Assembly (NCBI GenBank): GCA_964016885.1
Contig: OZ024742.1
Span: 352,098,001 to 352,162,000, forward strand
Direction: 5' to 3'
From: Eledone cirrhosa
Taxonomy: Eukaryota
Length of the DNA: 64,000 nt
The notes below the pieces were generated by a model. That model was not told the origin of the DNA, made no database searches, and saw only the letters and a program-made list of their open reading frames with translations. The position numbers were made by a program, and so were the translations under genes. Shown here one piece after another: positions 17,455-54,784 of this stretch. How positions within the stretch are numbered: position 1 is the stretch's first letter; every line of letters starts with the position of its first letter.

Positions 17455-18061
17455 ATTAATAATGAGTTCAAAACTCAGGCAGTCCTTTACAATGAAATAG
17501 CTCAAAGAGAGAAGTATTTCCGAGCCGTGTAATACAAATTAATATGAATTAATATATTTGATAAACACAAATACCAACATATCCGTGTTTGTATTGTAAA
17601 TGACTAAGTTAGCTAGATTGAAAAATACTAATGTGCGTTAAACAGTCTTTTTAAAATATTTTGAAGTGAAACATACCAATTTTTCTAATGCTTGCTGAGG
17701 AGATCTAAATGCAGTATTTTTCACTTTTTCATTCTTCGAAACTTATTTGGATTTTAAGGTTTAAACCTGCTCACGGAACAGGTTTGATTTTGAAATTTAA
17801 ATTTGTCCAAGCATTTGCCAATATGCTTTGTTTTTATTGATTTATTATTTTAAATGGAGACAGGCAAACTGTATTATTATAATTAGTATTTTTCAATCTA
17901 GCTAACTTAGTCGTTTACAATACAAACACGGATATGTTGGTATTTGTATTTATCAAATATATTAATTCATATTAACTTGTATTACACGGCTCGGAAATAC
18001 TTCTTTCTTTGAGCTAATTCATTGTAAAGGACTGCCTGAGCTTTCAACTCATTATTAATAG
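17455..18061. mobile_element. PLE pseudo-LTR with inverted arms (17455-17631 / 17882-18060)
   Basis: About 177-bp inverted repeat adjoining the GIY-YIG fragment, ending at (TA)n. Confidence 0.75.
17687..17815 (+). ncRNA. Type I hammerhead with 90-nt stem II expansion
   Basis: aatgcttg-CTGAGGA-[90 nt]-GAAA-TTTAAATTT-GTC-caagcatt; perfect 8-bp stem I. Confidence 0.7.
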
Positions 18062-18166
18062 TATATATATATATATATATATATATATATATATATATAT
18101 ATATATATATATATATATATATATATATATATATATATATATATATATATATATATATATATATAT

Positions 18167-20981
18167 TTGTGTCCATAATTCTTTCTCAACAGAGGCTATG
18201 AACATATTCACTAATGGATACTGTGAGGCAGTCACTGTATTCAGTCAAACCAACAACCTATTAGTAGTTGGGCTCTATAGGCCACCCCAAACGCCTGTAC
18301 CATGCTTCAAGGAATGCCTCAACAGCATAAAGTGTTTCATCCAAGAGAGTCACCCTGACAACATCTTAATGATGGGGGACTTCAACCTCCCCGGAGTTGA
18401 CTGGTCCACAAACAGCCTGCCACCAGGTTCTTCTGCCTCAACCTCTGACAGGGAAGCTGTGGAATCGCTTCTTGACTTCATGGATGATTTCTTCCTATCC
18501 CAACTGGTGCTCGAACCAACGAGGTGCCACAAAAACGTCCTAGACTTAATTTTCAGCAATCACACTGACAATATCCACAATATTGCAGTGGAGAAAACTC
18601 TACTCTCTGATCATGACATGGTTCTCTGTGATCTGAGATTCCACCGTCCAATATACAAACCCAATGTCATCTCTCCTGTCCATCCGTTTGACGCTATGGA
18701 TTTCCACAATGCAAACTGGGAAGCGATCAGTCATGATCTTGCACATGTCGACTGGTCCTTCACGCACACTCATACACCCACTAACATCAAAAAGTCCTGG
18801 CAGACATTTGTGGACACTGTTACAAACATATGTGCTAAACACACCCCATTAAGAACTATAAACAAATCTAAGAGCAGAATCCATAGAAATAGAAAAACGC
18901 TCATCAGAAAAATTAAGAGAACGAACAAACAAATCAACAAGCTGAAATACTGTCAGCAGCAACACATCAACTTGACTGCCATTTCATGACTAGAGATTAA
19001 AAAACATAACCTCCAAAACAACATAATGTCCCTCATCAACAATCAGAGAAGAGCTGAAGAGGCCTGGGCCATTGAGAAGATCAAACACAATCCCAAAGTG
19101 TTCTTTTCATTTGCAAAAAAACACAAAATCACTGGCTCTACTGTTGGCCCTCTAATTGATGAAAATGGCACTCTTCAAGACAATGCTAAAACCATGGGTG
19201 AGATACTGCAGAAACAATACTGCTCTGTTTTCAGCAATCCTGATATGGCCGATCTGGGCTGTATCGGCGATGTTACTCCCCATTACACCTTATCGGACAT
19301 AACGTTTGGCGCCCCTGATGTCTTGGCGGCAATAAAGGAAATCAAGCATAATTCAGCAGTAGGTCCCGATAGGTTCCCTGCTTGTGTCTTGAAGGCGTGT
19401 CAACACCAACTTGCATCTCCTCTTGCCAATCTGTGGCGGAACTCACTGGATGCTGGATATGTGCCAGAAAACCTTCTATCTGAGTCTGTTGTCCCAGTTT
19501 TCAAAAAGGGAAACAAATCCCTTGCCGTGAATTACCGTCCAATCTCACTCACCTCTCATATCATTAAGGTATTTGAGAGAGTGGTGAGATCGCGAATGAC
19601 CCACTTCCTTGAGAGTAACAATATGCTGAACTCCAACCAGCATGGATTCCGTAATGGAAGGGATTGCCTGACGCAGCTACTGCATCACTTTGATGACATT
19701 TTGAGAGCCTTGGGAGAGGGTTCCAACACTGATGTTATCTACCTTGATTTCAGCAAGGCCTTTGACAGGGTTGATCATAACATTCTACTGAGAAAGCTGT
19801 CCAATATTGGTGTCACTGGAAAGCTGCTGCAGTGGATCAAGAGCTTCCTGTCAAACAGAACCCAACATGTTGTAGTTGAGGGAGTCAAATCCAGCCCAGC
19901 CAAAGTCAGTAGTGGGGTCCCACAAGGCACTGTGTTGGGCCCACTTCTCTTCATCATCTATATTAATGACATCACTGACATCATCAAACACAGCAACATT
20001 AAAATTTTCGCTGATGATTCCAAGCTCCAAAAGGTCATCAATGGCGTGGATGACCGGATAAGCCTTCAGTCAGACCTACTGGCTGTTACCCAATGGGCGG
20101 AAAAGAACAACATGTTACTGAACGAAGACAAATTCGAACTGATCCACTTTGGAAAAGAGGATGCTCTGAAACTCCCGTACTCCCTTCCCTCCGGGGAAAC
20201 TCTCGTGGCATCTAACAACATCAGAGACTTGGGAGTAACCGTGGACAGCAACATAAGCTGGACCACGCATATAAGCAGCAAAGTTGACATGGCCCGCAGA
20301 ATGTGTTCCTGGATCCTCAGAACCTTCCAGTCGAGAGATTCCCGCACCATTATCCTTCTCTTCTCTACTTTTGCCCGACCACACCTTGAATACTGTTGTC
20401 CACTGTGGTCTCCCCACACGAAACAAAGTATCATGAAACTTGAAGCTCCTCAAAGGGCAATCACGAAAAAGATAGATGGCATGTCAGACCTTGACTACTG
20501 GGGTCGATTAGAAAACCTGAAACTTTACTCACTCCAACGTCGCCGTGAGCGTTATATTATCTGCATGATGTGGAAAATGTTCCATCATCAGTGCCCAAAT
20601 GATGTTGGCATCGCCTTCAAGATACCCCCAAGGCTTGGGCCCCGTGCTATCCGTCCCATTCAAAAATCTAAATCGCAACTCATAACAACAATACGGCACA
20701 ATTATTTCACCTCAATCGGCCCTGCTCTCTTCAACATCACACCAGGACACGTCAAAACAGAAACTGACCACACAAAATTCAAGAAGCCTTTGGACAAATT
20801 CCTCCAAGTAATCCTGGACAAACCACCCACACCCGGATATGTCTTCGCAAACAGTAATTCTCTTCTCGAATGGGCCATGGTGCCCAAATCCTGAATTGAA
20901 AGACTTCGCCAGGTGGTGCTATTAAGTTAGACATGGCCTGGGCCAATACTGGCCAAAACATTTCAAAGTTATTCAAAGTTG
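18167..20981 (+). mobile_element. 5'-truncated CR1-group non-LTR retrotransposon (APE+RT ORF2) in (TA)n
   Basis: APE motifs YRPP, GDFNLP, LDLIF, SDH; RT motifs NYRPISLTS, YLDFSKAFD, SGVPQGTVLGP, FADD; short 3' UTR ending ttcaaagttattcaaagtt. Confidence 0.93.
18198..20894 (+). pseudogene. LINE ORF2 (endonuclease/reverse transcriptase) split by one in-frame TGA at 18987-18989
   Basis: ORFs 18198-18989 and 19026-20894 are in the same frame; N-terminus missing. Confidence 0.9.
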
Positions 20982-52870: not shown

Positions 52871-54715
52871 TATATATATATATGTCAATATGTATTTATA
52901 AAACTAACCTATATTATATTTTATCTCATGAAAGTGCACCATAGTTTGCCTTGGTGGCCCTTGAAATATGTATAATGAAATAAATATGGTTTTATAAATA
53001 TAGTTTCCATTTGTTAATATATTGTATATATATATATATATAGGAAAATGTTTGACCCCGACGGCAGAGCTCGAGCCGTTTCGACGGCTATTCCTGGACT
53101 AATCCAGAAATAGCCGTCGAAACGGCTTGAGTTCTGCCGTCGGGGTCAAACATTAGCCTAAGTATTGAGTAATTCTGGTGCATTATGGTCCATCTGGTTC
53201 CTTACCACACCTCCTTCGTTATATATATATATATATATATATATATATATATATATATATATATATATATAAAATTTCTATTTAAATTGTTGTGAGACAA
53301 GCAAATATTTTTATAACTGATATAAAGCACTCAACAAATAATTGGAGTAAAAATACGATATTAACAAATGGAAACTATATTTATAAAACCATATTTATTT
53401 CATTATACATATTTCAAGGACACCAAGTTAAATTATGGTGTGCTTTCATCAGATTGAATATAATATAGACCAGTTGTATATACACACACACACACACACA
53501 CACACACACATATATATATATATATACATATATAAATATACATATATATAAATATATATATATATATATATATACATATATATATATATATATATATATA
53601 CATATATATATATATATATACATGTGTGCATATATGTATGTATATATGTGTATCCAAAATCACCGGGAGAGATGACCCCTTAGCCATTGTCAAGGCAGAA
53701 TTCTAGGAGAAGGAACACTCTCATATAAAACCTGCAACACTGATGGTATTTAATGATGTTGATTTGTTCTTCTTTTTGGTAAATATCATCTTGGTTAAGC
53801 GAGTGGGACTGGTTTTGTGCAGTGCCTTTGCTCACTATAAAAGCTTCACGGCACAGGGATTGCTTTATATATGGAGATCTCTCTGCACTTGAGGTCACAT
53901 GATACCATGGGCCTAGTACTATGTGTCAGTAATTGTCAGAGTTTTCAAGTCGATGGCTGGACTAAAACGTCACACTCGTTCAGCGCATCGGTAGGGGTTC
54001 TCCTACATGGATATAAAATAGTGGCCGTACTCGAAAACGAGTTGGCAGCCATACCATATATGTGTATGTATGTGTGTGTATATATATATATGTGTGTGTG
54101 TGTGTCAGTGTGTATGTACATATATCTGTGTGTATCTATATGTGTGTGCGTGTGAATATATATATATATATATATATATGTGTGTGTGCATAGGTGTGTT
54201 TATATATTTGTGTGTATATATATATATGTGTGTGTGTGAACGTATGTGTGCGTGTGTATTTACATATGTGTGTGTAGGTATGTGAATGAATGTGGAATGC
54301 GTGTATATATGTATGTATATGTTTGTAAGTAGGGATCCGTGCGTAAGTACATGAGTGTAAGAGATATGTATGTCGCTACCTGTCTTTGTCTTCCATGTCC
54401 GAACTTCATGCCCTCCCCTCCCCCCCCCATCCTTACCTGCCAAGAATAGCGGACCCTAAGGGTGATTTACAGCCTAGCAAATGCTTCAACCAATTGTAGC
54501 AGTATTGGGGCAAGCAGACGGTCTTCCATATATGAATGCAGACGACGCTTGCCCCGATGAGAGATAGACGTCACTTCGGGGATAGACCGATGATGATGAT
54601 GAGATAATGAACCAATGAGTGGACACAAAATATCACGTTGTAAGAATGTGCTGAATATATCAACTGAATGGAGGATTTTGCACATAGAATGGGAGACGAG
54701 ATAACACACGGAGAC

Positions 54716-54784
54716 ATATCTGACGACCTTTCTATTACACAGACAGGTACCTCGAGCTGACTGATGGTTAAACGTACGTAATAT
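54716..54784 (+). ncRNA. Hammerhead with about 42-nt stem II region, G12 mutated
   Basis: atat-CTGACGA-cc...ggt-TAAAC-GTAC-GTA-atat; palindromic ACGTACGT. Confidence 0.55.

Follow-up and report, generated by a model that had tools for sequence, protein, structure and literature searches.

The stretch of DNA analysed here, which comprises 64,000 nt of the forward strand of contig OZ024742.1 (positions 352,098,001 to 352,162,000) in the Eledone cirrhosa assembly GCA_964016885.1 and is referred to as the window, belongs to a genome of 3.0 Gb. It has a GC content of 35%, is rich in (TA)n and carries fragments of Penelope-like elements (PLEs; one with a weak GIY-YIG match) as well as a reverse transcriptase (RT) of the long interspersed nuclear element (LINE) type. 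Among these repeats lie type I hammerhead ribozyme motifs, and the original prediction, made from the letters alone, had claimed a radiation of such hammerheads with expanded, structured stem II. Our analysis bears out this claim, since the long-armed type I hammerhead motifs are enriched over shuffled sequence; they are real and high-copy in many families. The sites in the window are listed below.

5216-5310, + strand: the 5223 hammerhead of the pseudoknot class, within a 591 nt non-coding tandem unit; 5' strand of the pseudoknot at 5216-5221, stem I formed by 5223-5227 and 5306-5310, core TTGATAA (U3-A8) at 5228-5234, stem II region of 57 nt at 5235-5291 with the pseudoknot partner at 5243-5248, stem III palindromic, cleavage predicted after C5305
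5816-5899, + strand: second member of the tandem array of the 57 nt family, with stem I down to 3 bp
6405-6492, + strand: third tandem copy of the 57 nt family
4790-4877, - strand: inverted member of the 57 nt family, facing the tandem array head to head
24471-24558, - strand: 57 nt family member in the inverted part of a second insertion
25453-25540, + strand: copy of the 57 nt family in the second insertion
12326-12413, + strand: the 12334 site, a decayed member of a pseudoknot-class family of the U3-A8 type; insert of 59 nt, 5' core (12331-12337) and U16.1 mutated
17688-17814, + strand: the 17687 site, a doubtful hammerhead whose core motifs are intact and separated by 90 nt, located in a non-coding tandem unit of 549 nt
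21324-21435, - strand: the 21324 hammerhead, Hydra module class; stem II region of 85 nt, bulged-A helix at about 21353-21413, predicted cut after 21328
33157-33268, - strand: second copy of the 85 nt Hydra-class hammerhead
36680-36790, + strand: the 36680 hammerhead, with a branched stem II region of 83 nt and palindromic stem III, in a non-coding unit of ~845 nt
38077-38184, - strand: the 38180 site, a decayed 82 nt hammerhead of the Hydra module class
37-76, + strand: 3' half of a further module-class copy, comprising the module strand, GAAA and stem III
48387-48470, - strand: inverted copy of the 59 nt family (the 48386 site), stem I down to 3 bp
48887-48983, + strand: the 48895 hammerhead of the pseudoknot class, within a non-coding tandem unit of 659 nt; 5' strand of the pseudoknot at 48887-48892, core at 48899-48905, stem II region of 59 nt with the partner at 48912-48917, stem III palindromic, cleavage predicted after 48976
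54716-54784, + strand: dead copy of a 61 nt family

The lengths and cores first given for 5223, 36680, 48895, 48386, 21324 and 33157 stand; the 36680 copy has mismatches in its basal helix. Two further sites of that list, 54716 and 12334, are dead copies as judged from their sequence, and 17687 is doubtful as a hammerhead. Decay had been recognized at 12334, where the other copies of the family place the U3-A8 core and the insert length; its core is intact in 2 of 8 family loci. The spacing of about 42 nt reported for 54716 reflects decay as well, because this copy has lost G12 (GAAA to TAAA) and 19 nt of a 61 nt insert; the core of this family is intact in 21 of 27 loci, 14 of those with 61 nt. 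The 17687 site shows a stem I of 8 bp (7 bp in most family copies) and a GUC triplet, and its motifs are kept in 25 of the 30 top loci of the family; it is considered doubtful because its stem III is non-palindromic and a clear basal stem II next to the core is lacking. Five of the six copies of the 57 nt family in the window, together with the 38180 site, come in addition to the sites originally listed.

Enrichment of long-armed hammerheads in the window and in the genome

Our strict descriptor consisted of stem I, CTGANGA or TTGANAA, 6-130 nt, GAAA, a palindromic stem III and TH. It matched the window 16 times, nine of these with at least 35 nt between the core halves, as compared with a mean of 0.08 and a maximum of 1 long match in 100 block-wise dinucleotide shuffles; a looser descriptor found 8 matches versus 0.39 in shuffles. 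The nine long matches come from only three families, and the check was therefore made genome-wide; repeats inside the window were traced by self-blastn. In a 1 Mb sample of 100 evenly spaced 10 kb stretches (L165-L264) the strict descriptor matched 104 type I hammerheads, whose stem II regions measured 6-19 nt (50 matches), 20-34 nt (24), 35-49 nt (13), 50-69 nt (9), 70-99 nt (6) and 100-150 nt (2), the shuffle means being 0.1-0.5 per length bin. At 50 nt or more the sample holds 17 matches, against 0.95 in 20 shuffles. Replacing the core by wrong ones left 1 match (G5C) or 8 (mismatched, non-covarying 3-8 cores), and altered positions left 2 (G at 17) or 5 (non-U at 16.1). At 17 per Mb, some 50,000 strict copies with a stem II of at least 50 nt would be present in the genome, a rough extrapolation given that 6 of the 17 belong to two loci; over all lengths, about 100 strict hammerheads per Mb amount to roughly 300,000 per genome.

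Pattern searches of the whole genome point in the same direction. A pattern spanning 76-106 nt gave 24,635 matches versus 1,028 with the reversed pattern, one of 45-75 nt with an 8 nt stem III gave 3,149 versus 6 in the control, one U3-A8 group gave 269 versus 0, and the 57 nt family of 5223 has 6,167 copies with intact core versus 0 in the control. The first 30 loci of the 76-106 nt pattern have a stem I of at least 4 bp in 19 cases, compared with 4.2 when flanks are swapped, and a palindromic stem III in 28, both being features outside the pattern. The statement that stem III is short and mostly palindromic is thus sustained in general; at 21324/33157 (CACTTG), as at 17687, it is not a palindrome. 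Clustering of 343 matches from 1.6 Mb resulted in 45 families, the lengths of which grade into one another between 8 and about 115 nt. A first look at the 5223, 36680, 48895/48386 and 21324/33157 families yielded 1,020-1,948 candidates or more, and in the top-scoring loci, i.e. those nearest the query, the core is intact in 28 of 30 (83 nt), 29 of 30 (85 nt), 30 of 30 (59 nt) and, as already mentioned, 21 of 27 (61 nt). In keeping with a three-way junction closed by stems I, II and III, with stem I open, stem I and basal stem II covary; the data show covariation of all three stems.

High-copy repeats multiply any random match, and it could be argued that the core motifs have come together by chance in amplified repeats; 17687 and a few single matches (44, 45, 56 and 146 nt) do look random or doubtful. 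This argument is at odds with dozens of families displaying a paired stem I, a palindromic stem III, the C3-G8/U3-A8 swap and avoidance of G at 17. A chance origin is already refuted for most families, and we consider its probability negligible as a general explanation.

A predicted pseudoknot in families of the first class

The inserts had been described as sharing no obvious sequence and as belonging to unrelated repeat families, but two groups of them do share structure and motifs. The first (class 1) is made up mostly of families of 49-62 nt, including 5223, 48895 and 12334, plus one family of 87 nt and one of 96 nt. In their layout a basal helix of 5-6 bp leads to an internal loop whose 5' strand is complementary, over 5-8 bp, to the bases directly 5' of stem I. 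The two strands read ACCUC/GAGGU in the 5223 family, CGCUC/GAGCG in 48895, CCUCA/UGAGG in the 12334 group, and UUUUCC/GGAAAA, UUCUCA/UGAGAA or GCCC/GGGC in other class 1 families.

Pairing between flank and insert was scored in fixed 12 nt windows for 22 families of at least 49 nt, after removal of one row in which two short motifs in tandem had been parsed as a single one of 83 nt. The score averaged 10.9 within families and 8.1 across families (0 of 20,000 permutations), and the same test gave no signal for the downstream flank or for the families of 26-47 nt. When 47 distinct loci selected by pattern were scored, 32 of them reached at least 12, as opposed to 1 of 47 for the downstream flank, and in three of the four groups no insert paired better with the flank than its own. 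In a MAFFT alignment of 13 chosen members, all six pseudoknot pairs vary on both sides and 76% of cells are paired. An internal-loop pseudoknot joining the stem I side to stem II is therefore predicted for class 1, and of the functions first guessed for the insert, that of a tertiary contact gains support in this class only. Hammerheads with pseudoknots between the bases before stem I and the stem II loop are said to be common, as attributed to Lunse et al. (2017).

Some particularities of this class were also observed. In five loci (L302, L301, L296, L311 and L298) an A-rich pseudoknot faces a U-rich opposite strand of the internal loop, so that U.A-U triples, a feature of ENE elements, could form; this was not seen in the CCUCA and CGCUC families. 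In the family of 93-96 nt (L327, L328, L347, L098, L213) the stem II region is multi-branched, the register of the pseudoknot is kept and one compensatory change separates copies.

A conserved module in Hydra-clade families

The second group (class 2) consists of families of 75-97 nt of the Hydra clade of PLEs, represented in the window by 21324/33157 and 38180. A helix located 15-23 nt into the insert has a bulged A in the 5' strand, U-G and U-A pairs, a run of about 10 bp, and a cap in which a closing G-C pair is followed by an A opposite a G. A genome pattern combining the 3' strand of this module with the downstream core had 12,493 matches, compared with 12 for the control. Among 30 loci with the module pattern, the canonical 5' core lies upstream in 16 and a CCGANGA core, identified by eye, in 7 more; in 9 the end of a Hydra endonuclease precedes the module on its own strand, at a distance of 430-1,220 nt, and an open reading frame (ORF) starts about 250 nt downstream in 2. 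The same endonuclease end was upstream of none of 60 pseudoknot-class loci. In 16 chosen module members, 14 of 23 pairs vary on both sides, and 86% of cells pair versus 32-44% when the strands are slid. No pseudoknot and no visible contact with stem I were found in class 2.

The CCGANGA (U4C) core is shared by whole subfamilies of the module class (L355, L356, L357, L359, L360, L373 and L378). A reading of the module as a selenocysteine insertion sequence (SECIS) or a kink-turn was rejected by eye, the module having tandem 5'-AG/3'-GA rather than the GA/AG of the consensus. A scan of metagenomes for the module returned at least 119 stretches, nine of which had the 5' core upstream and none a convincing stem I; these are treated as chance and carry no information on other animals.

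Conserved non-canonical pairs in the Hydra module could also be expected of a natural aptazyme, in which the insert would bind a small ligand and thereby switch cleavage, and stem II is the usual site for engineered aptamers. For aptazyme-like regulation, which had been put forward at the outset, we found no evidence: conserved unpaired bases are few, the context is that of selfish repeats and no Rfam aptamer or riboswitch matches the window at the gathering score. This explanation is regarded as highly improbable.

Protein binding is the role that we favour for the module, given its restriction to a single clade, the lack of a visible contact with stem I and a precedent in a Poseidon PLE hammerhead, which cleaved only with its protein present (PMC11167929). 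The RT binding originally suggested is plausible for this class, and the module may be a docking site for the RT-endonuclease of the element itself, an assignment that we make tentatively and would not bet on.

Carrier elements

The 85 nt family occurs in both pseudo-long terminal repeats (pseudo-LTRs) of a full element of 3,149 nt, the ORF of which bears RWK, DKT and CxCX5C. The ORFs at L157 and L159, read by eye, have RWK, DKT replacing DKG, the CxCX5C linker, a C-terminal GIY-YIG without CCHH, CxxC and CxH around conserved E and N, and (TA)n targets; Pfam had no match to either of them. Motifs of the RWK, DKT and CxCX5C type define the Hydra clade (PMC8557442), and the 21324/33157 family appears on these grounds to be carried by a Hydra-clade PLE. 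Its assignment to Naiads was rejected, as these have an N-terminal endonuclease (PMC8557442). The corresponding coding remnants in the window are as follows.

21931-22558, - strand: 3' part (GIY-YIG end) of a Hydra-clade PLE ORF, 500 nt upstream of the hammerhead at 21431; 96% identical to the ORF end of a near-full element in L159
22557-22710, after the former: 5'-truncated inverted copy of the ORF end

The families of 75, 78, 81-83, 90 and 91 nt lie downstream of Hydra endonuclease ends. The 61 nt family is found at the 5' end of an ORF for RT and GIY-YIG with canonical GxKF and DKG, and two of the families first described (85 and 61 nt) are thus placed in PLE pseudo-LTRs or at an element end. 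In L388 and L135 a PLE reading frame passes through the 61 nt hammerhead insert, which may be compared with the PAc ORF start in stem II.

The 57, 59, 83 (36680) and 90 nt (17687) motifs occur in units of 591, 659, ~845 and 549 nt, respectively, which are non-coding, arranged in tandem or inverted, truncated to varying extents at the 5' end and flanked by (TA)n; no PLE protein similarity was detected inside the 659, 549 and ~845 nt units. By their sequence arrangement these units follow the pattern of non-LTR retrozymes, and such non-coding tandem repeats are likely derivatives of PLEs. Nearby PLE ORFs (L385-L387) considered as partners of the pseudoknot class were rejected, since they are separate insertions and close relatives of their clade carry a hammerhead of their own with 18 nt. 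An 18 nt hammerhead is also seen ~210 nt past the endonuclease end at 41210 (-) and in L178, L225, L235 and L162, in another abundant PLE clade with a DKS-like motif.

Variable tips and the remaining families

The 83 nt (36680), 61 nt and 101 nt families fall outside both classes, forming rods or branched hairpins with little covariation in the samples. Distal tips are AT-rich and their length varies within families, and it is probable that they drift neutrally. One could extend this view to the whole arm and propose that stem II merely tolerates insertions, and that fold-back duplication and (TA)n slippage added sequence devoid of function. The length continuum is in keeping with such growth, as are the tips just mentioned and the 101 nt family, a plain rod with TA runs in which 1 of 45 pairs varies on both sides. 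Neutral growth does not account for pseudoknot strands that covary across families, nor for a Hydra module that keeps its bulged A, its U-G/U-A pairs and its A.G cap amid covarying neighbours. It probably explains the tips and not the proximal parts, and as an account of the inserts at large we deem it unlikely.

Proposed role of the expanded stem II

We consider it probable, with good but not full confidence, that the motifs are type I hammerheads of PLE terminal repeats and of non-coding tandem repeats likely derived from these elements, that growth of stem II to 50-115 nt gave them a proximal part which covaries and is likely structural, next to a freely varying tip, and that they cut tandem transcripts as dimers. 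By inference from known hammerheads, a tandem transcript would be cut after H17, mostly by dimers joined through the palindromic stem III, whose predicted self-duplex amounts to -10.7 to -12.9 kcal/mol in the 57, 59 and 83 nt families. In class 1 the pseudoknot would hold stems I and II side by side, by analogy with hammerheads in which mutation has shown stem I-II pseudoknots to be needed for fast cleavage (PMC3088659), the contact here presumably being made by an internal loop beneath a variable hairpin rather than by the terminal loop. In class 2 the module would dock the RT-endonuclease of the element, and this protein would assist folding or cleavage.

Several observations weigh against this proposal. 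The stem III of the 85 nt family is weak and non-palindromic (self-duplex -1.1 kcal/mol), and one basal pair is mismatched in 18 of 29 loci of the 83 nt family. For six of the seven copies from the window, the active fold of the monomer is less stable than the predicted minimum by 1-10 kcal/mol; in the decayed 38180 copy the gap is 19.5 kcal/mol. In Xenopus, 8 of 9 retrozyme dimers stayed uncleaved in vitro (bioRxiv 2026.07.22.740005). No autonomous partner was found for the pseudoknot class (57 and 59 nt) nor for the 83 and 90 nt families, and most families of 76-106 nt are devoid of the pseudoknot. In the fixed-window test the score reached at least 12 in only 8 of 22 long families and the windows were set after examples had been inspected, the families behind the 47 pattern-selected loci overlap partly with the 22 of the discovery set, and the alignment rows for the pseudoknot (13) and the module (16) were picked because they displayed the feature. 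A loose module finder also matched 6.4 of 21 shuffled inserts, and for this reason about ten families are counted as clean module members.

The insert might serve another step of the PLE cycle, such as recruitment of RT or initiation, RNA stability, export or an internal promoter, leaving cleavage unaffected. Catalytic mutants of the PAc hammerhead left in vitro insertion unaffected and PAc reverse transcription begins in a nearby stem-loop (PMC11167929). Elements of the 85 nt family have 3' ends only 60-75 nt beyond the cut site, and class 2, as described, lacks a visible contact with stem I. This explanation leaves the class 1 pseudoknot unaccounted for, whose fixed register beside stem I is that of a known hammerhead contact, and covariation of base pairs argues against a promoter of double-stranded DNA. 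All in all we find it quite unlikely. Returning to hammerheads that cleave with the help of their long arm, it is tempting to speculate further that Hydra-clade PLEs have equipped stem II with a dedicated, conserved RNA domain that binds their own RT-endonuclease and so gates the hammerhead by protein, that the stem I-II pseudoknot arose anew in a second lineage, on an internal loop and possibly with U.A-U triples, and that both belong to a large, overlooked class among invertebrates, a combined view for which our expectation is low, though not trifling.

The poor cleavage of isolated PLE hammerheads and their role in the element are still to be explained, and natural covariation across many families points here to two concrete sub-structures, a predicted tertiary contact and a candidate protein site. 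If true, the long-armed class might explain PLE families reported without hammerheads, and those reported with only 'half cores' merit re-examination. Natural hammerheads with large stem II domains are, in addition, templates for the design of ribozyme switches.

Other features of the window

Short hammerheads accompany the long-armed ones.

35657-35696, + strand: ordinary short PLE-type hammerhead with 11 nt, for comparison
37244-37280, - strand: short hammerhead
7058-7094, - strand: short hammerhead
49580-49622, + strand: short hammerhead
39227-39262, - strand: short hammerhead
32217-32271, + strand: short hammerhead, 26 nt
57829-57884, + strand: short hammerhead, 31 nt

Further decayed PLE ORF fragments, of Hydra-like appearance, are present at 29385-31122 (-), 34408-34836 (+), 63375-63833 (+) and 17098-17538 (-), and a near-complete LINE-type ORF (an endonuclease-like part and RVT_1 in a stretch of 634 aa) lies beside the 17687 repeat at 18018-20894 (+). 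A long low-complexity tract of trinucleotide and homopolymer runs occupies 1187-1898. A short repeat that is dispersed in very high numbers, frequently as inverted pairs, and has no hammerhead match recurs at 2172-2838, 11200-11361, 13018-13494, 14697-14895, 35982-36091, 41681-41874, 57907-58106 and 58912-59144.

Comparison with known hammerheads and retrozymes

It had been anticipated that standard models would miss these hammerheads, and they do. In the window, Rfam, hammerhead models included, gave no match at the gathering score, the short hammerheads being missed too, and at E values up to 10 no hammerhead model was among the 150 of 280 matches listed. When individual sites were searched, Hammerhead_1 (RF00163) reached 18.3 bits at 48893-48982 versus a cut-off of 34, and no hammerhead model matched 5180-5340. 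The published descriptor of minimal PLE hammerheads (min-HHR) limits loop 2 to 10 nt, in about 26 nt in all (PMC4209133), and misses the long-armed ones for this reason, since regions of 57-115 nt exceed a helix II of 3-8 bp with such a loop. Rfam and descriptors limited in the loop thus undercount hammerheads.

Published PLE hammerheads have a helix II of 6-8 bp, the U3-A8 variant and a palindromic helix III (PMC4209133). Ours resemble these minimal forms in their type I topology, the CUGANGA...GAAA...UH core, the U3-A8 variant and the short palindromic helix III, as well as in their location in pseudo-LTRs and in the truncated or inverted copies, and differ from them in a stem II of 50-115 nt with internal loops, branches and a predicted pseudoknot or conserved module (PMC4209133). 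Hydra-clade PLEs share with our class 2 the ORF motifs, the (TA)n targets and a frequent mismatch at 10.1-11.1, whereas the stem II of all their listed hammerheads measures about 11-26 nt, and not 75-97 nt with a shared internal helix (PMC8557442). As to precedents in length, two spike-moss PLE-X motifs of ~50 nt are marked as deviating, and eight Naiad 'half cores' lie 35-50 nt apart (PMC8557442).

Metazoan non-LTR retrozymes, which have been linked to PLE pseudo-LTRs (bioRxiv 2026.07.22.740005), likewise consist of non-coding tandem units with one type I hammerhead each (PMC7229834; bioRxiv 2026.07.22.740005), and our unit lengths of 549-845 nt fall inside the range of 51-972 bp given for them (bioRxiv 2026.07.22.740005). 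Both studies used canonical and minimal descriptors, and no long stem II appears in their excerpts. Nor is one mentioned in the excerpts of PMC7229834, PMC13725137, PMC6765202 and PMC6962438, in which 'long helix II' stands for 6-8 bp. Our literature search, whose coverage stopped short of Lunse 2017, the Terminon paper and File 1 of the Cervera 2014 supplement, returned no report of a stem II expansion of 50-115 nt in the excerpts it retrieved.

Pseudoknotted hammerheads account for about 40% of representatives, in all three types (PMC3088659). They are characterized by Watson-Crick pairing of the stem I side with stem II, which we predict for class 1 alone; unlike in those ribozymes, the partner in stem II is here an internal loop capped by a variable domain of 30-80 nt, in PLE hammerheads of the dimer type (PMC3088659). 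PLE hammerheads and stem I-II pseudoknots are therefore already known, and what appears to be new, no report of it having been found, is the expansion of stem II with two distinct sub-structures.

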